Both the position numbers and the translations under genes were made by a program. A stretch of DNA of 63,618 nt, filler included. It is 6 parts of 6 records of this genome, joined end to end, with 100 filler letters (N's around TTAATTAATTAA, not from the genome) between each part and the next. Parts side by side here need not be neighbours in the genome. Positions count along the whole stretch, not along the records: positions 48,717 to 52,589 come from SRR9188677_98; 5 more parts are not named here. One strand, written 5' to 3'. Under the pieces are notes generated by a model. The model was not told the DNA's origin. It saw only the letters and a program-made list of their open reading frames with translations, and searched no databases. Shown here one piece after another: positions 16,748-52,589 of the stretch (positions are counted from its first letter, which is position 1; every line of letters begins with the position of its first letter).

Positions 16748-17641
16748 ATGCATACTATTTGTTGTATAGGACATATTACCCATGATAAAGTAGTTACCCC
16801 CGGTTCAGTTGTACATATGCCCGGTGGTACTTCTTTTTATTTTTCCAATGCTATACGGCAGATGGACACGCGTTACCAGTTGGTTACAGCGGTTGCTGCC
16901 CCTGAACTGCCTTATGTGACTGCTTTACGGAATGCCGGAATTGAAGTGACGGCATTTCCCAGCCAACAAACTGTTTTTTTTGAGAATATCTACTCGCAGG
17001 ATCAGGATAACAGAACGCAGCGGGTATTGCATAAATCAGATCCTTTTACAGTAGATCAGTTAAAAGAGGTAAAGGCTGAGATCTTTCACCTTGGACCCTT
17101 ACTGGCAGATGATATTCCTGTATCGCTGATCCGTGATCTGGCTTTGCGTGGAAAAGTATCGCTGGATGTTCAGGGGTATCTGCGCGAAGTAAGAGAAGAG
17201 AATGTGTACCCGGTTGATTGGCTCGATAAAAAAGAGGCTTTGCCTTTTATCAGTATTCTCAAAGCCAATGAAACCGAAATGGAGAAACTGACGGGAACAA
17301 GTGATATTAAGGAGGGCATACAGAAATTAACAGACTGGGGTGTTGCAGAAGTGATCATTACTTTGGGAAGCAAAGGTTCGGTGATCTATCATGAAGGAGA
17401 AACTTGTATTATTCCCGCCTTCATACCGGAACAGGTAATTGATGCCACGGGCTGTGGTGATACCTATATGGCGGGTTATCTCTATCGTAGAACAAAAGGT
17501 GATTCGATAAATGACGCAGGGAATTTTGCCGCTGCCATGGCTACCCGTAAAATCGAAGGGTCGGGTCCATTCGAAGGCACAGAAAAAGATGTACAGGATG
17601 TATTACAACAGCGTGCTACAAAACTATTCAGTTTCCAATAA
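16748..17641 (+). CDS. PfkB-family carbohydrate kinase
   Basis: PGG near the N-terminus, ITLGSKGS and DATGCGDTY signature. Confidence 0.9.
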   Translation: MHTICCIGHITHDKVVTPGSVVHMPGGTSFYFSNAIRQMDTRYQLVTAVAAPELPYVTALRNAGIEVTAFPSQQTVFFENIYSQDQDNRTQRVLHKSDPFTVDQLKEVKAEIFHLGPLLADDIPVSLIRDLALRGKVSLDVQGYLREVREENVYPVDWLDKKEALPFISILKANETEMEKLTGTSDIKEGIQKLTDWGVAEVIITLGSKGSVIYHEGETCIIPAFIPEQVIDATGCGDTYMAGYLYRRTKGDSINDAGNFAAAMATRKIEGSGPFEGTEKDVQDVLQQRATKLFSFQ

Positions 17642-17653
17642 TCAAACTTTTAT

Positions 17654-18577
17654 ATGCAAAGGCAACATCCAATAGTTATTTTCTGCCTTGGCTTTTTATT
17701 CTTGCTATTCAGCATTTCTGCTGCTATGGCACAGGCTGCTAAACCCATTACGCAAGTAGTACTATTAGGAACAGGTACTCCCTTTGCTGATCCGGAAAGA
17801 TCCGGTCCTTCTCTGGCCATTGTTGTTAATAATACTTCTTACGTGATAGATTGTGGTCCGGGTGTGGTGCGAAGAGCTTCGGCTGCTGCCTCGAAAGGTA
17901 TTCCGGCACTAAAAGCGGCTGCTTTACGAAAATTATTTATTACACACCTTCATACCGATCATACTGCCGGTTATTCCGATTTTATTTTTACACCCGCCGT
18001 ACTCGATCGGAATGCAGCATTGGATGTGTTTGGTCCGAAAGGAATACAGCAAATGACGGATCATATTCTGCAGGCATATAAAGAAGATATGGATATCCGC
18101 ATCAAGGGACTGGAATATGGTGACCCCGCCGGTTATCGTGTGAATGTGCAGGAGATTAAACCGGGAGTGATATATAGAGATTCCAATATTACTGTGAAAG
18201 CTTTCCGCGTAAACCATGGTTCTTGGGCCGAAGCGTATGGATTTCGTTTCGAAACACCCGATAAAGTGATTGTTGTGTCTGGCGATTGTACCTATAGTGA
18301 AGAGCTGGTAAAGAATGCGCAGGACTGCGATATACTCATCCACGAAGTTTATTCCGAAGAGGGACTGGCGCGACGGGAAAAACGCTGGCAGGATTATCAT
18401 TCCACTTTTCATACTTCTACCAGTCAACTGGCTGAGATTGCCAATCAAGTAAAACCGGGTTTACTCGTTCTTACGCACCAGTTATTGTTTGGAGCAACAG
18501 AAGAAAGCCTGCTTCGCGAGATTCGCTCGCGGTATGCTGGGAAGCTCGTTAGTGGGAAGGACCTGGATATATTCTGA
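17654..18577 (+). CDS. Secreted MBL-fold hydrolase (RNase Z/AtsA-like)
   Basis: Signal peptide; LLGTG, THLHTDH, SGDC, HE and HT motifs. Confidence 0.85.
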   Translation: MQRQHPIVIFCLGFLFLLFSISAAMAQAAKPITQVVLLGTGTPFADPERSGPSLAIVVNNTSYVIDCGPGVVRRASAAASKGIPALKAAALRKLFITHLHTDHTAGYSDFIFTPAVLDRNAALDVFGPKGIQQMTDHILQAYKEDMDIRIKGLEYGDPAGYRVNVQEIKPGVIYRDSNITVKAFRVNHGSWAEAYGFRFETPDKVIVVSGDCTYSEELVKNAQDCDILIHEVYSEEGLARREKRWQDYHSTFHTSTSQLAEIANQVKPGLLVLTHQLLFGATEESLLREIRSRYAGKLVSGKDLDIF

Positions 18578-18582
18578 CAGAT

Positions 18583-19341
18583 CTATAATGCAGTGATCCA
18601 TTTCCTGAAATCAATGGCACTTTCCTGGCTTACAATGATCTCTTCTGAAAGGGGAACCGTTAACTCTACGAGTATTTTAATCTTGTCATAAGACCGATAA
18701 GATTTCACAAAATCAATGTTGATGATAAATTTCCGGTTGGCCCGGTAAAATTTCTTCGGGTCCAGTTCTTCCTCCAGTTCTTTCAGGTTTTTATCTACGA
18801 GAAATTTTTTCCCATCCCTGGTTACAAGGAAACTGATCTTCTGTTCCGTATAAAAATAAGCCACTTCTTCCAGCAGGATACTTTGAAATTCGATCCCTTT
18901 TTTTACTACAATCCTTGATTTCCGGCTGGTATCTTTTTCTGAAATAAATTTCAGCAGGTTTTCGTGGTTATTCAGGAAATGATCTTTTAATGTCCTGTAT
19001 TTGGCGATGGCTTTGGACAGTTCCTGTTCGTTAATGGGTTTTAACAGGTATTCGATGCTGGTCTGTTCAAATGCTTGCACCATGAAATTATCAAACGCAG
19101 TGATAAAAATGATCGGTGCAGAGATTTTTACCCGTTCAAATATGCTGAAGGAAATTCCATCTTTCAGATGAATATCCATAAAAATCAGATCAGGTGTAGG
19201 ATTGGCCAGAAACCAGGCTACGGATTCTTCAACGGTTTCCAGTACGGCAATCACCGAAACAGGTTCTTTGGTTAACTGGATATGGTGAATAAGATTATCT
19301 GATGCTGTTTTTTCATCTTCAATAATTACTGCTTTGATCAT
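18583..19341 (-). CDS. LytTR-family response regulator
   Basis: REC domain (IIEDE, FMDI, TAF, LLKP) plus LytTR domain (FYRANRKFIIN). Confidence 0.92.
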   Translation of the reverse strand: MIKAVIIEDEKTASDNLIHHIQLTKEPVSVIAVLETVEESVAWFLANPTPDLIFMDIHLKDGISFSIFERVKISAPIIFITAFDNFMVQAFEQTSIEYLLKPINEQELSKAIAKYRTLKDHFLNNHENLLKFISEKDTSRKSRIVVKKGIEFQSILLEEVAYFYTEQKISFLVTRDGKKFLVDKNLKELEEELDPKKFYRANRKFIINIDFVKSYRSYDKIKILVELTVPLSEEIIVSQESAIDFRKWITAL

Positions 19342-19347
19342 AACCTA

Positions 19348-20382
19348 TTAGGATTTAAGGATGGGTAATGTTACGGTGAACCAGTCAGGTGTTTGCTGTA
19401 TGCTGATATTTTTATGTACAATCAATGAATATCGCTCGTTCAGGTTCGATAATCCGATTTTAGAGGATTGGATATCAAACTTTTTGAGATGACGGGGATT
19501 TACTACGGTGATAGCTTCTTCGGAAATGCTGATCTCTATGTCAAGATTTTTTTTATCTGAAAAATGATTATGCTTGATGGCATTTTCTATCAGGGTCTGC
19601 AAAGAAAGCGGGGGAATGAGATAGTCTTCCACACTGATATTATCCATCCGGATAACCATACTTAATCCCGTCTGGTAACGGATCTTGAGCAGGTAAAAAT
19701 AATTGCTGGCAAATTCAATCTCCTCTTTCAGTTGAATCAGGTCTTTTTCTTTATTCAAAAGAATATACCGGTACACTTTCGCAAGGGTATCGTTAAACAG
19801 CCTGGCTTTTTCAGGATTCTGGCTGATCAGGTAGGACAAAGTATTCAGAGAATTGAAAATAAAGTGAGGGTCTATTTGGCTTTTCAGTGCATCCAGTTGC
19901 GCCTGTACTTTCAGTTTTTCACTTCTTTCTACCTTTACCAGATCAGACTCCCTTTCCTTGTACAGGTACACAATCTCATAGATACTGCTGATCTGCAGGC
20001 TGATAACGGTGATAATAACCTGGCATCTCAACAGGTCTCCTGAACCAAAAAGGTTGTTTATAAAAAAACGATTCCATATTGTCAGGAGGATAAATGAAAA
20101 CCCCCAGCTTACCACCAGCGGAACGGCAAACCTGAGCGGAATCCGGATGTATAATTCTTTGATGGCGTATAAATAATGCCTGAGGGTCCGGTGTACAAAA
20201 CCACAGCCGTGCCAGATGCAAAAGGATATGCCTGTAAAATACAGGTAATGAAGCGATAAGCTATTCATACTGCCACCTGTAATGAATAAGAAACCCGACA
20301 GATGAAAGATCAATATCCCGGTGAGCGGTATACCAATCCATTTATACAGGGTATCGTTAACAGGTTGCAGGAGCGTATTCAT
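19348..20382 (-). CDS. LytS-type sensor histidine kinase
   Basis: N-terminal TMs; LKSQIDPHFIFNSLN; IENAIKHN; IGLSNL. Confidence 0.92.
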   Translation of the reverse strand: MNTLLQPVNDTLYKWIGIPLTGILIFHLSGFLFITGGSMNSLSLHYLYFTGISFCIWHGCGFVHRTLRHYLYAIKELYIRIPLRFAVPLVVSWGFSFILLTIWNRFFINNLFGSGDLLRCQVIITVISLQISSIYEIVYLYKERESDLVKVERSEKLKVQAQLDALKSQIDPHFIFNSLNTLSYLISQNPEKARLFNDTLAKVYRYILLNKEKDLIQLKEEIEFASNYFYLLKIRYQTGLSMVIRMDNISVEDYLIPPLSLQTLIENAIKHNHFSDKKNLDIEISISEEAITVVNPRHLKKFDIQSSKIGLSNLNERYSLIVHKNISIQQTPDWFTVTLPILKS

Positions 20383-48716: not shown

Positions 48717-48767
48717 AACAGCAAACATGCGTATATTTATGAGTTAGCTGTAATTAATTGAAATATT

Positions 48768-49349
48768 ATGCAAGTTGAAAGAGTAAAGATTGGCAATTAT
48801 TTATTTATAATTCATGAGCTTGAAAGCAAAGAAGAGAGAATGCTATTGGAGTCTACCAACAAAGGAACACCACTGGTTGGACAATATTCTTACCAAAAAC
48901 ACCAACCGCATAATCCAACAGGCGAATATCATGTGCACGTTTACAAAAAAAATAATGAAATATTTTCCATTAATAAAAGTGGCAAAGGTCACGATGGCTC
49001 AAGCGGAACAAGAATTCCAAATGATGTATTCAGTGCATTAAGCAGCAAATTTCCTGATTGGACTTGGCCCAAATCCCAAATCGTAGAATCCTTAAATCAT
49101 CAAATAATACTTGATAAAAATATGAAAGAAAATTTAAGACCGGTGCATGTTTCAAGGCATAGTTTAAATACGAAAGAAATTGAACATTTTGATGGTTATT
49201 TTCACACTTTCGCTGACGATCCATTTGTCACTGGAGGTAACGGAGGTTGGTTTGCAAAAACAATTGCCTTGGTGGAAGATGATAGAGGTAACATAAGAAA
49301 AGTAGGAGTAGATTCTTTGCGATTTATGGATGTCGAAGAATTTCTATAA
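48768..49349 (+). CDS. Hypothetical cassette protein with HQPH...YHVHVY...GHDGS motif
   Basis: 193-aa ORF filling cassette 1; family not recognised with confidence. Confidence 0.75.
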   Translation: MQVERVKIGNYLFIIHELESKEERMLLESTNKGTPLVGQYSYQKHQPHNPTGEYHVHVYKKNNEIFSINKSGKGHDGSSGTRIPNDVFSALSSKFPDWTWPKSQIVESLNHQIILDKNMKENLRPVHVSRHSLNTKEIEHFDGYFHTFADDPFVTGGNGGWFAKTIALVEDDRGNIRKVGVDSLRFMDVEEFL

Positions 49350-49350
49350 C

Positions 49351-49556
49351 TACAGCTAACAAAAATATTTGCAAAAGCTGGGCAGACGGAAGCCGTGTTT
49401 CAACTTTTGTTTTTCAATTTGGCTTCATATCGGGCAGGACGTTATTAATTTAGCTATGTGCAAACCATCAACTTTTATTTTTAAATTTAGCTTCAGGTAG
49501 CCGGGCGGACGGAAGTCCATTTCCCAGTCTTCGCAAATACTCGGTCATTATGTGTA
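49351..49556 (+). repeat. attC-like element 1
   Basis: TACAGCTAAC-aaaa-ATATTTGCAAAAGCTGGG ... CCCAGTCTTCGCAAATAC-tcggtc-ATTATGTGTA. Confidence 0.75.
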
Positions 49557-49574
49557 ATTATTTAAAACACTCCA

Positions 49575-50927
49575 ATGCACAAAAAATCCTTAATAATCGG
49601 AATCAATAATTACAAGCACTTTTCCGTGTTAGAAAACTGCATTAATGACGCAGAAGATATGCATGGGTTTCTTCAAGCAAATGGGTTTGAGAGTACATTA
49701 CTATTAGACCCAATACAAGCTGATTTAATAGAAGCAATTAAACAGTTTAAAGACTCCATTTCAGATGATACGGTCTCAATTGTGTTTTTTTCTGGACACG
49801 GGTTACAGGATGAAAAATATAATTTTCTGGTAGCTTCTGACTCTGAAGTAAGATTTATAGAAGACATAAAATATAACTGTATACTCGCTGATGACTTGTT
49901 GATAAAAACCTCAAAAAGAAATCTACATTTAATAATATTTGATGCTTGTAGGAATAATCCATATTATAACGGCAATAAAGGAGGCTCAATTGGTCTATTG
50001 AAGATGGACGCACCAGCGGGAACATTAATTGCTTTCTCAACAAGTCCTAACTCAGCTTCTATCGAAAGGGCTGGTGAAAGAAATGGAGTATACACTAAGT
50101 ACTTATTAAAAAATATGCAGACTCCCAATTTGCCAGCTGAATTGGTATTTAAGAATACAAGAAATGATGTGATGAAGGACACATTAGAAAAGCAAATTCC
50201 GTGGGAGGAATCATCTTTGTTTGGAGATCATTTTTCTTTTATCAAAAATGATGAAGATACTATTGAGAAAATAATCATTGAGCATTTATCAAGCAATAAA
50301 CCATTATTGCTTCCTGAAGTAATGTCTTTTCTAAAAGTTTCAATTTTTGAAACTGAACCCGTCGCAAGACTACTCCTGATTCTAACAGCGATAAAAATTA
50401 GTTTTTCTAATGAAGAAAAGGGTATTACTGCAAGAACCGTTGACCAGGATTACTTTAATGATACTTTATTTAGCCACTATTACCCTCTATTTGAAAAAAG
50501 GTTGACTAGAGAAGACCCTGCTTCAGAAATTTTTGATTTGGAAACTCTTGGCGGATTAACAATAGTGAAAGATGTAAATTTTGGATATAACTGTTTAGAA
50601 CAACCTGATGAATCATTTTCCCAAGCAATGATAAATTATGTAAAATTCAATAATGAAGATGGGATTGTATGTTTTTATCTGTTTGTTAAAGACAATGAAC
50701 ATATTTTAAAACCTGTCATCATCACATTGCACGATAATAAAATTAAACTATACTACTATTCAATTATTACTGGCGAGAAAGTGAATGAATTATCAGATGC
50801 TTACTTTAAGTTACGACTTCCATTTGAAAAAGAAGTACCCCAATGGGATAACCTTACTACAGCTACAATTACAACTGGAGAATGGACTGAAGAAAATTTC
50901 GATAATTTTTTTAGGTCGAAAGAATAA
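49575..50927 (+). CDS. Caspase-family (peptidase C14) protein with unknown C-terminal domain
   Basis: LIIGINNY, CINDA, FFSGHG (catalytic His), IFDACRNNP (catalytic Cys), NGVYT, QIPW. Confidence 0.9.
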   Translation: MHKKSLIIGINNYKHFSVLENCINDAEDMHGFLQANGFESTLLLDPIQADLIEAIKQFKDSISDDTVSIVFFSGHGLQDEKYNFLVASDSEVRFIEDIKYNCILADDLLIKTSKRNLHLIIFDACRNNPYYNGNKGGSIGLLKMDAPAGTLIAFSTSPNSASIERAGERNGVYTKYLLKNMQTPNLPAELVFKNTRNDVMKDTLEKQIPWEESSLFGDHFSFIKNDEDTIEKIIIEHLSSNKPLLLPEVMSFLKVSIFETEPVARLLLILTAIKISFSNEEKGITARTVDQDYFNDTLFSHYYPLFEKRLTREDPASEIFDLETLGGLTIVKDVNFGYNCLEQPDESFSQAMINYVKFNNEDGIVCFYLFVKDNEHILKPVIITLHDNKIKLYYYSIITGEKVNELSDAYFKLRLPFEKEVPQWDNLTTATITTGEWTEENFDNFFRSKE

Positions 50928-50930
50928 AAC

Positions 50931-51129
50931 TACACATAACAAAAGTATTTGCAAAAGCAGGACTAGACGTTGTTATCTTCGGCTGTAGCTCGCTATCAGC
51001 TTCAGTTTCGGCTAGACGTTAGTAATTTGGCTTTTTGTTGTTATCTTAAAATTCAGTTTTTCAATCAGCATTTGTTCCAGGCTGGACGTTAACGTCCCTG
51101 CCTTCGCAAATACTCTAACGTTGTCATTA
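50931..51129 (+). repeat. attC-like element 2
   Basis: TACACATAAC-aaaa-GTATTTGCAAAAGCAGG ... CCTGCCTTCGCAAATAC-tctaac-GTTGTCATTA. Confidence 0.78.
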
Positions 51130-51159
51130 ATTCTAAAAGATGAGACAAGAAACTTGTAA

Positions 51160-51315
51160 CTTCAACTATGTGCAAGCATCCGTAGTAATTCCACCCGACG
51201 TTCATTACTCACCTTTAGTTTTTAACTTCAACGGCATATTTTCAATTAAGCATTTGACAGGGATGGACAATCAATGAATCTCTGCCTTCGCAAATACTCG
51301 AACGTTATAGGGCAT
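51160..51315 (+). repeat. attC-like element 3, 5'-truncated
   Basis: Keeps internal motifs (CTATGTGCAA, GACGTT, TTTTCAATTAAGCATTTG) and right arm CTGCCTTCGCAAATAC-tcgaac-GTTATAGGGCAT but lacks the left arm. Confidence 0.7.
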
Positions 51316-51355
51316 TTTAAAAGATTACACAACGACAATCAAAACGAATTTAAAA

Positions 51356-52552
51356 ATGATAATAAAAAAATGTTCACATTGTGACAATAACATAAGGATA
51401 CATCCTGTAAAATTTCCAGTAATGAATGACCATGGTGGAATTATTGTAGAATGTGAAAAATGCAACAAACTTTCATTTTGTGAAACTATAAATCCAGTTG
51501 AAACGGGAATTTCAAAAGGCGGAAGAAAAATTGACACTTGGGACATAGATATAACATCAAAAGAAGTAGCAATTTCTAAGTATTCAGACATTAAAGAACT
51601 AAAAGAGGGTTTGTTAGTTGTTGGAGACTTAGAAGTGCGTGAATACGAATTTAATTTTAATACGCCTCACATATATCATTGCTCAAATTGTAGAAATGAG
51701 ATTGAGAGTGTAGCAAAAAACGAATTGATTAATGAGAGTCAAAAAATTGTTAAACAATATGACTGTTTAATGAACTATATCTTGGCTAATCATAAACAAG
51801 AATGTGACAATTTAATAGTAGAAGTAAATGCAGAATGTAGTTGCGGAAATGTTTTCGTTTCTTACTGGCATAAAAAATTCGTAGCCGACAATAAGCAAAT
51901 TAGTCCAGAAAAAGACCTTTTCCTCATAGGTACAGATATGCCAATTAACACTTCTTCTATCGATGGAATAATGTCAAAAAATGATTGCAAAAGAATTTTG
52001 GAAAAATTTATTATTCGATGGAATGCAATTTATCCAAGATTACTAATTGTGACTCCATTTGTTGGACATCAATGGTTATCACAGGAAGAAATAATAGAAT
52101 TGTGGGACTGGATAAAGAACTTTCTTGACCCAGAGAAATCTTCTTTAGTTACTAGGACTGCGACTTACAATAAATATAAGAAGGCTTGCGAAGAGAAAGG
52201 CGTGAGTTTAGAATTATTAGAGAAATATGGATTAAACAACTCAATCATACAAGAATTTACAAAGAAGCAGGACTTTCATGCCAAAATATATGTTGGATAT
52301 TCTTCAGAAAACACAGAAATGTTATTAGGCTCTTTTAATCTTATGGAGGGTCCATCAGTTGAAAATATTACTTTCAAATCAACTGACTACAATACTTTCA
52401 AAAATAAATTTGTAACTCCAATGCATATTCCTGTCGTTAATCCTGACAGTATCGAATTACATTGGCTGAGAATTTATCAAAATGAAGATGAATGGTGCGC
52501 TAATTGGATTAAAAGTTTAGACATCTTGACTAAAATCATGACGTATGAATAG
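51356..52552 (+). CDS. Zn-ribbon plus PLD/Nuc-like nuclease domain protein
   Basis: CSHC, CEKC, CSNC and CSCG pairs in the N-terminal half; C-terminal TPF...FHAKIY...GSFNL (HxK...GSxN). Confidence 0.75.
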   Translation: MIIKKCSHCDNNIRIHPVKFPVMNDHGGIIVECEKCNKLSFCETINPVETGISKGGRKIDTWDIDITSKEVAISKYSDIKELKEGLLVVGDLEVREYEFNFNTPHIYHCSNCRNEIESVAKNELINESQKIVKQYDCLMNYILANHKQECDNLIVEVNAECSCGNVFVSYWHKKFVADNKQISPEKDLFLIGTDMPINTSSIDGIMSKNDCKRILEKFIIRWNAIYPRLLIVTPFVGHQWLSQEEIIELWDWIKNFLDPEKSSLVTRTATYNKYKKACEEKGVSLELLEKYGLNNSIIQEFTKKQDFHAKIYVGYSSENTEMLLGSFNLMEGPSVENITFKSTDYNTFKNKFVTPMHIPVVNPDSIELHWLRIYQNEDEWCANWIKSLDILTKIMTYE

Positions 52553-52589
52553 AAAAACTCTCAAACTAGTCGTAGGTTGTTTCCTACGA

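Follow-up and report, generated by a model that had tools for sequence, protein, structure and literature searches.

Gene cassettes with long attC-like sites point to an integron-like array in a Chitinophagaceae-type contig

We analysed a stretch of DNA of 63,618 nucleotides (nt), referred to here as the window, focusing on one contig in it that carries three co-oriented open reading frames (ORF1-ORF3) with related, unusually long elements between them. Taken together, the data make it quite probable that this contig is a fragment of an integron-like gene cassette array from a Chitinophagaceae-type (Bacteroidota) genome. The feature works like an integron but departs from integrons in the integrase, in the consensus of the R boxes and in the length of the attC sites. 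The original prediction, made from the letters of the sequence alone, had proposed both an integron-type cassette array and a Bacteroidota host. Both proposals held: the same site family forms arrays in Chitinophagaceae genomes, and in these related genomes the complementarity of cassette ends, covarying stems and the linkage of arrays to a recombinase all speak for cassettes of the integron type.

The recombination footprint is seen at the ends of the cassettes. Cassette 1 starts with GTT followed by AGCTGTA and ends with TACAGCT followed by AAC, the two heptamers being reverse complements at 7/7 positions; cassette 2, which starts with ATT followed by ATGTGTA and ends with TACACAT followed by AAC, also gives 7/7. 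Overall, two of the three testable cassettes in the window score 7/7 and the third 3/7. R'' and R' within one window site do not pair with each other, and the last bases of attC-like site 1, past the ATT at 49547-49549, are the first bases of the next cassette. In integrons, a cassette's R'' pairs with its own 5' end because recombination between G and TT (G/TT) leaves the last bases of each site to the next cassette. The same rule is evident in the related arrays, where R' of one site and R'' of the following site are complementary at 6/7 or more positions in 58 of 83 adjacent pairs (32 of them perfect), as compared with 8 of 92 pairs taken within one site and 83 of 1188 non-adjacent pairs. 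In other words, the contig and the related arrays carry the G/TT crossover footprint of integrons.

The sites also have the attC geometry, that is, R''-spacer-L''...L'-spacer-R'. In site 1, the R'' box (49350-49360, with AAC at 49358-49360) is followed by a 4-nt spacer and L'' (49365-49382), and L' (49523-49540) by a 6-nt spacer and ATT (49547-49549). Site 2 repeats this layout: R'' box 50930-50940 with AAC at 50938-50940, 4-nt spacer, L'' 50945-50962, L' 51096-51113, 6-nt spacer and GTT 51120-51122. Site 3 keeps its central part, L' (51280-51297) and GTT (51304-51306), while R'' and L'' are gone. Two full and one partial intergenic element had been described in the original prediction, and an nhmmer profile of 93 long sites, all from other genomes and none from the window, matched the 63.6-kb window only at the same three places, namely 49352-49554 (E-value 2.6e-27, model positions 2-200), 50933-51125 (5e-27, 3-198) and 51171-51311 (8.5e-11, 59-200). 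The 14-mer CTTCGCAAATACTC is present in exactly three copies in the window, all on the plus strand, at 49529, 51102 and 51286; allowing up to two mismatches gives 4 matches against 0.49 expected, a number that 0 of 100 shuffles reach. The coupling of genes and sites was likewise as proposed, with three co-oriented genes following (G/A)TT cores: all are on the plus strand and start 22, 25 and 49 nt past GTT 48743-48745, the ATT of site 1 and the GTT of site 3, respectively. The first two genes do end just before AAC boxes, the stop codon of ORF1 lying 0 nt before the site 1 box CTACAGCTAAC and that of ORF2 2 nt before the site 2 box CTACACATAAC.

Classical attC sites are about 57-141 nt long, and neither this length nor the integron R-box consensus RYYYAAC/GTTRRRY is found here. 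None of the 2 R'' and 4 R' boxes in the window fits it exactly; AAC and GTT are kept (ATT once). The window boxes follow instead the consensus of the related site family, C[AT][GA]C-NNN-Y-AAC and GTT-R-NNN-G[CT]AA. Among 111 related sites, exact fits to RYYYAAC and GTTRRRY number 7 and 8, respectively. The description of atypical, long sites (192 and 185 nt in the window) that keep the attC geometry and match only the AAC/GTT triplets was therefore accurate. An Rfam scan of the contig returned five matches to snoRNA and sRNA families, which we consider chance matches since all score far under the gathering thresholds. A by-eye check of the middle part of the sites revealed no clear Bacteroidota-type -7 promoter motif.

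We traced the site family by a pattern scan covering 185,579 species genomes, which returned 120 stretches, mostly by chance. The left motif was found 159-160 nt upstream in 11 of 121 examined pattern matches. Ten of these 11 two-motif matches are in contigs labelled Hydrotalea, Flavisolibacter, Ferruginibacter, Chitinophagaceae and unclassified Bacteroidetes, and one is in a metagenome-assembled genome labelled Bosea; two further matches (Terrimonas and Ferruginibacter) are shorter versions. The remaining plain 14-mer matches (108 of 121) have no partner motif and were set aside as mostly chance. When the elements are aligned (alignment A1), their interior is highly similar and the 7-10 nt outside AAC and GTT are variable. 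A BLAST search with one element against five related genomes gave 2-40 matches in each, clustered, co-oriented and often at contig ends. We also used a site finder based on structure only (AAC, 3-5 nt, a 14-nt arm, its complement with up to 3 mismatches 50-330 nt away, 5-7 nt, GTT). In eight related loci it detected 5, 24, 19, 9, 12, 8, 8 and 7 same-strand sites, against 0-3 in shuffles or on the other strand of these loci. The related elements form same-strand arrays of 5-24 sites per locus; whether they form arrays was a check that the original prediction had proposed.

Of the 132 related sites, 111 are of canonical length, either 123-125 nt (17 sites) or 180-202 nt (94 sites). Their 17-position L stem covaries; for instance, position 6 is GC in 50, CG in 29, TA in 19 and AT in 12 sites, Watson-Crick in 110 of 111. 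Some positions are fixed as non-Watson-Crick on the top strand: of the 111 sites, 85 have A.C at position 11, 31 have it at position 8, and 63 have T.G at position 2. Across stem positions 8-12 there are 149 A.C cells and a single top-strand G.T. Places that read A.C on the top strand would be G.T wobbles on the bottom strand. Both full sites of the window carry A.C at the equivalent positions. The two spacers of a site differ in length (4 and 6 nt in the window), and the 17-position stem needs no bulge. The motif GG[CG]N1-3GAC occurs at three fixed places in the long related sites, with 396 forward and 0 reverse matches. Each long site has three direct GGGCNGGAC-like repeats at fixed places and on one strand only; a possible role for them is as accessory binding sites of the recombinase's extra N-terminal domain, described below.

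Mobility of the cassettes is reflected in their neighbourhoods. Among 83 cassettes of the related arrays there are 19 full-length pairs (at least 85% identity over at least 90% of the length). In 11 of these pairs the neighbours on both sides differ, in 6 one side differs and the other is at the array end, and in 2 one neighbour is shared. As a separate observation, cassettes of ~345 bp that start with GTTAACGGCA recur at least 10 times in the arrays of one Ferruginibacter genome, G005 (for example, L150, that is G005:C4:175000-194999, at 17199-19866, and L149:8442-9270). They have no long ORF, only a short hydrophobic frame.

In keeping with the expectation that the recombinase would be encoded elsewhere, a tyrosine recombinase heads the related arrays. 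In contig C16 of G005, an array with perfect cassette matches begins ~310 nt after the stop codon of a same-strand recombinase of 393 amino acids (aa). Of the 15 recombinase loci having more than 3 kb of downstream room, 14 have a canonical-length site on the same strand no farther than 5 kb downstream of the gene. In a phylogenetic tree, 19 array-linked recombinases group together in a clade that excludes the Xer-like genes of those genomes. Of 301 genomes in the family to which G001 belongs, 88 have a homologue (E-value up to 1e-60), as do 12 of the 25 in its genus; G001 is the nearest genome compared, having 32% of the window's sampled words in common. The catalytic residues R, K, H, R, H and Y show no variation among 15 array-linked recombinases. 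We infer that this Xer-like enzyme is the one acting on the sites.

The linked recombinases do not resemble canonical integron integrases in one important respect. The best family score of the G005 enzyme is that of XerA (NF040815, 184.7 bits, cut-off 220), followed by TIGR02249 (174.8 bits, cut-off 265), both above XerC and XerD. Aligned with VchIntIA (PDB 2a3v), its residues 117-295 correspond to 8-186 and its residues 316-389 to 247-320, leaving 20 residues (296-315) to face 60 residues of VchIntIA (187-246) that include the IntI-specific segment. In the alignment with IntI1, 315 aa align to 276 aa of the query with 30.3% identity, and the TIGR02249 matches listed in the family genomes end near model position 174-187. 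Judging from these alignments, the linked recombinases lack the IntI-specific additional domain (around patch III) that characterizes integron integrases. The arrays thus co-occur with one tyrosine recombinase clade, the association that had been suggested for checking, and this clade is without the insertion. Pfam recognizes a SAM-like domain (residues 117-195) and a catalytic domain (213-375) and nothing in residues 1-116; array-linked recombinases carry an extra N-terminal domain of ~60-115 aa. The structural model of the recombinase (pLDDT 81.9) matches XerA (5hxy) and VchIntIA (2a3v) equally, with E-values of ~5e-16. The N-terminal domain modelled alone (pLDDT 79.5) has two beta hairpins and two helices, with no convincing fold match in Foldseek (best E-value 0.24) or VIA-align (best Z 4.4). 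Our guess is that it might be an arm-type DNA-binding domain.

Other recombinases also came to our attention. There is a second IntI/Xer-like set in the family of G001, made up of open frames of ~540-610 aa (for example, G036:C264, G088:C1 and G168:C1), whose scores over the first 180 positions of TIGR02249 reach 146 bits, above the array-linked enzymes. A Chryseobacterium sp. plasmid (NZ_CP041688.1, locus L218) has a 34.8%-identical recombinase annotated as 'site-specific tyrosine recombinase/integron integrase'. Behind this gene come small, unrelated genes in the same orientation, 140-nt palindromes and the reverse transcriptase of a group II intron. We considered NZ_CP041688 as a further array of this kind and rejected it, since the cassette rule was not seen at the palindromes.

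Sixteen of 20 recombinase loci share a conserved sequence, with the right end ...CGTATATT(T)A..GA/GTT, that lies 86-311 nt past the stop codon and gives way to variable sequence. It is an attI-like site, placed next to the recombinase gene at the head of the array as expected of an integron. The only match in the window to the attI-like consensus CGTATATTTAAGAGTT is formed by the first 29 nt of the contig (1 mismatch, 0.07 expected). Nearest to this end is the attI of G219, a genus-mate in which the first cassette likewise starts with GTTAGCTGTAAT; the contig end is 93% identical to a repeat end in G001. The original prediction had read positions 48717-48754 as the right end of a different attC family; that part has to be given up, as the segment resembles the recombinase-proximal attI-like site.

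The order along the contig is thus an attI-like end, cassette 1 with its 192-nt site, cassette 2 with its 185-nt site, the stump of a deleted cassette with a truncated site, cassette 4 and the start of a composite repeat (Table 1).

Table 1. Features of the contig (positions are those of the window)
Feature	Position	Strand	Description
attI-like site, right end, cut by contig end	48717-48745	+	ends ...CGTATATTTATGA/GTT; crossover triplet GTT 48743-48745
Cassette 1 gene (ORF1)	48768-49349	+	ORF, 193 aa
attC-like site 1	49350-49556	+	192 nt from AAC to ATT; nhmmer and alignment
Cassette 2 gene (ORF2)	49575-50927	+	ORF, 450 aa, predicted caspase-family (Peptidase_C14)
attC-like site 2	50930-51129	+	185 nt from AAC to GTT; nhmmer
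Remnant cassette, ~35 nt, then 5'-truncated attC-like site (site 3)	51123-51306	+	no ORF, R'' or L''
Cassette 4 gene (ORF3)	51356-52552	+	ORF, 398 aa, PLD-like
Left end (CTCAAACTAGTCGTAGGTTGTTTCCTACGA) of ~258-bp composite repeat, cut by contig end	52560-52589	+	93-100% matches in G001

The cargo had been called defence-like, which is a fair guess for ORF2 and, on weak scores, for ORF3; ORF1 is without a family, and no known defence system was recognised by Pfam or PADLOC among the three genes. ORF2 is predicted to be a caspase-family protease: residues 3-217 match Pfam PF00656 (Peptidase_C14, 1.7e-33) and PADLOC 'caspase' (5.9e-15), both His (SGHG) and Cys (DACR) are kept, and an uncharacterised C-terminal half follows. 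Its only full-length homologue among 301 family genomes is in G079 (74% identity over residues 1-450). The G079 cassette has the same start, ATTATGTGTAATT, and is preceded by an attI-like sequence rather than an attC-like site; in that genome, low-GC cassettes lie between higher-GC genes. We noticed that A, not G, precedes TT upstream of the caspase cassette in two unrelated contexts (window position 49547 and L161, G079:C24); the exchange point may lie one base to the left of the classical G/TT, or this may be coincidence. Caspase-domain genes are numerous and clustered in some Chitinophagaceae, for example, four in G064:C1:907-925 kb and six in G197:C21:17-44 kb, and share with ORF2 only the protease domain. 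ORF3 combines a CxxC zinc-ribbon-like N-terminal part with one HKD-type motif (FHAKIYVGY...GSFNL), which makes a PLD-family (PLD/HKD) nuclease likely. No Pfam family scores above its cut-off, and the scores to PADLOC ZacB (8.4e-07 over residues 227-329) and to PLD-like clusters of the atlas (0.81-0.86, leads only) are weak. ORF1 has no Pfam or PADLOC family, its best atlas score of 0.79 being only a lead. A tblastn search with the three window proteins against the first set of related loci gave no match.

As for the setting of the contig, the window consists of six unrelated stretches (GC content 0.333, 0.615, 0.436, 0.359, 0.332 and 0.349 in order) joined by artificial linkers N44-TTAATTAATTAA-N44. 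The feature is the entire 3873-bp contig (48717-52589, GC content 0.332) and both outer coordinates are contig ends. Because unrelated stretches are joined by N linkers, the adjoining sequence in the window is not genomic context for the contig. The window as a whole resembles a binned or mixed assembly. The last 30 nt of the contig match repeats in three G001 contigs (C27, C19 and C11; 93-100%). We observed that G001 has at least 6 copies of a ~258-bp composite repeat (for example, L012:8330-8600, L009:4694-4925 and L009:15752-15990) built from a tight hairpin (TCGTAGG..CCTACGA), a ~100-nt hairpin (AAAGAGCG..CGCTCTTT) and an attI-like right end, and that the contig starts and ends inside such G001-type repeats. 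The repeats of the G001 arrays are composites of the hairpin part and the attI-like part. The three genes have no DNA match in G001, where only the 30-nt contig ends match repeats.

We also looked for the arrangement in public sequencing runs. Four runs carry at least 85% of the stretch's sampled words, and the comparison was made with contigs of four runs in all. One run, which may be the source run, has the whole stretch in a single contig, and a run of a second study has the same arrangement over two overlapping contigs. Two runs of other studies, one of them a freshwater metagenome, contain pieces spanning the junctions between site 1 and ORF2, ORF2 and site 2, and site 3 and ORF3. In the two full-length runs the attI-like end also continues into sequence of G001 contig C11, with the break directly after GTTA. 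In runs X13 and X14, other upstream sequences join the composite repeat at 52560/52561. In the freshwater run X2, loose ends at 51304 and 51310 fit other partners at the GTT of site 3; these may come from other organisms.

Several observations weigh against reading the contig as an integron-like array, or at least as a working one. The ORF3 cassette, with its 3/7 complementarity, has as its 3' partner a different composite repeat that is cut by the contig end. Site 1 has A in place of G twice, once in the crossover triplet and once as the first base of the stem; site 3 is 5'-truncated. Fold energies give z-scores that are unremarkable for site 1 (-0.29 for the bottom strand, 0.00 for the top) and weak for site 2 (-1.78 and -1.48). 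Folding of the bottom strand, which had been suggested as a check, was helpful in part: the minimum-energy fold of site 2 pairs L' with L'', but the energies do not mark the sites out. Since site 1 behaves like shuffled sequence and site 2 is weak, we set fold energies aside and relied on covariation instead. There is no recombinase gene in the window, which says little because the contig is only 3.9 kb long, and the nearest genome, G001, has no recombinase homologue at E-values up to 1e-60. When one IntI1 and three Xer-like rows are included in the tree, IntI1 attaches to the latter; as it does so by long branches, we consider its placement unreliable. Finally, contigs of four runs, each from a different study, show the same junctions and no other joint was listed, although one of the runs may be the source. 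Given the two G-to-A changes, the truncated site and the lack of a recombinase in the nearest genome, the array in the source genome is probably not fully active.

Some of these points bear directly on the idea of a fossil array, one whose recombinase has been lost, whose sites are decaying and whose genes are by now fixed in the chromosome. We find this quite possible, if not our first inclination. It would account for the changes in sites 1 and 3, for the lack of a recombinase homologue in G001 when 12 of 25 genomes of its genus have one, and for the identical junctions in runs from four studies; it would also agree with the G001 arrays themselves (contig C27), whose cassette ends, inspected by eye, fail the complementarity rule. 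On the other hand, site 2 is intact, cassettes 1 and 2 keep their 7/7 complementarity, and the lack of any DNA match to the three genes in G001 implies that the content differs between near relatives. Much less can be said for an ordinary integron, with a canonical integrase encoded elsewhere in the same genome and attC sites that are merely of unusual length. The site geometry and the G/TT footprint are as in classical attC, and the integrase survey covered related genomes only. However, TIGR02249 scores above its cut-off in none of the 301 family genomes and in none of the six named genomes (G001-G006), the related arrays begin directly behind the Xer-like recombinase and the attI-like site, and the classical R-box consensus is fitted exactly only by the few related sites counted above. 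We therefore regard an ordinary integron as very unlikely.

It might also be argued that the elements are self-spreading intergenic repeats, akin to repetitive extragenic palindromic sequences, miniature inverted-repeat transposable elements or terminators, and that the genes between them are not mobile. The elements are indeed repeated, intergenic and hairpin-containing, they occur in dozens of copies in related genomes, often at contig ends, and their fold energies are unremarkable. Yet a transposing element leaves direct duplications around itself, whereas the matching flanks observed here are reverse complements around genes (58 of 83 versus 8 of 92). Moreover, sites and genes always share one orientation, the sites starting 0-2 nt past stop codons; units of gene and site recur with different neighbours; and the arrays take their start from a conserved site that follows recombinase genes of a single clade. 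We give this explanation hardly any weight.

If the contig is indeed part of an integron-like array, its cassettes would be expected to move in the following way. One strand of a site would fold, L'' pairing with L' and R'' with R', to give a single-stranded substrate. The tyrosine recombinase would then exchange strands at or beside G/TT; recombination between two sites would excise a cassette as a circle, and recombination of the circle with attI would insert it beside the recombinase gene. A more far-reaching proposal, on which we are evenly divided, is that Chitinophagaceae, and perhaps wider Bacteroidota, run a separate integron lineage, in which an Xer-like recombinase without the IntI insertion shuffles cassettes via long folded attC sites, and the stem mismatches, the GGGCNGGAC-like repeats and the N-terminal domain replace the site recognition provided by the insertion.

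The proposal matters because both the definition of integrons and the search for them rest on an integrase that has a specific extra domain. In the Chitinophagaceae-type family, the cassette logic with its exact footprint is accompanied by a linked recombinase without this domain in 88 of 301 genomes, and by a canonical integrase in none. If the proposal is true, the IntI-specific domain is not required for integron-type recombination, and surveys keyed on it overlook a system that roughly three in ten genomes possess in a large family of soil and freshwater bacteria. Should the role of the enzyme be confirmed, it would change what counts as essential for single-strand attC recombination, offer a handle on the origin of integrases from Xer-like enzymes and open a large unsurveyed environmental pool of cassettes, which here would include a caspase-family protease and a PLD-like nuclease.

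As to previous reports, passages of Ghaly 2021 (PMC8618304) and Ghaly 2022 (PMC9668308) count Bacteroidota among the phyla with integrons. A section of Neron 2022 on IntegronFinder 2.0 (PMC9024848) gives for Bacteroidetes only In0 elements and one complete integron, in Salinibacter ruber, and a passage of Darracq 2024 (bioRxiv 10.1101/2024.07.02.601686) places Bacteroidota among clades previously found without integrons. The additional domain of IntI was reported to be needed for activity (Messier and Roy 2001, as cited in a passage of PMC9668308). We found no paper on integron-like arrays in Chitinophagaceae in a literature search that left supplementary tables outside, where calls of clusters of attC sites lacking integrases (CALIN) may exist; nor did the search turn up any paper that reports, for Bacteroidota, an integron-type recombinase lacking the additional domain.

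Comparison with known systems places the feature close to integrons, with clear differences. The contig resembles a CALIN in that its attC-like sites are clustered and no integrase is in reach; CALIN, however, are defined by matches to the standard attC model. XerA, XerC and XerD are the best sequence and fold matches of the array recombinase, on a par with VchIntIA, and have the same length in the region of the IntI insertion. Unlike the array recombinase, they have no N-terminal domain and no attI with cassette arrays downstream; the substrate of Xer enzymes is a single short dif site per replicon, in double-stranded form. Xer-dif (pdif-type) modules have dif-like sites of ~28 bp in alternating orientation, and do not match the sites described here, which are 124-192 nt long and all in one orientation. 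Archaeal integrons were also found outside the usual taxa by genome mining and, according to a passage of PMC9668308, have attI directly downstream of intI, as is the case here; the same source describes archaeal IntIs as retaining the IntI-specific additional domain, which the enzymes studied here do not. The features in common are most numerous with sedentary chromosomal integrons such as the Vibrio cholerae superintegron (attC sites of the Vibrio cholerae repeat type; VchIntIA, PDB 2a3v). Both have co-oriented, mostly single-gene cassettes, the R''-spacer-L''...L'-spacer-R' layout with AAC/GTT, exchange at GTT, a match between R'' and R' that is each cassette's own, an attI beside a tyrosine recombinase gene, and highly similar attC sites specific to the host lineage. 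In contrast to sedentary integrons, the recombinase of the arrays described here is without the IntI-specific insertion (20 versus 60 residues) and has an extra N-terminal domain, and its gene is co-oriented with the cassettes, with attI past its 3' end. The sites are 185-192 nt long (~124 nt in the second class) with three direct GGGCNGGAC-like repeats, their R boxes are longer and deviate from RYYYAAC/GTTRRRY, and fixed A.C mismatches, not evident bulged bases, mark their stem.

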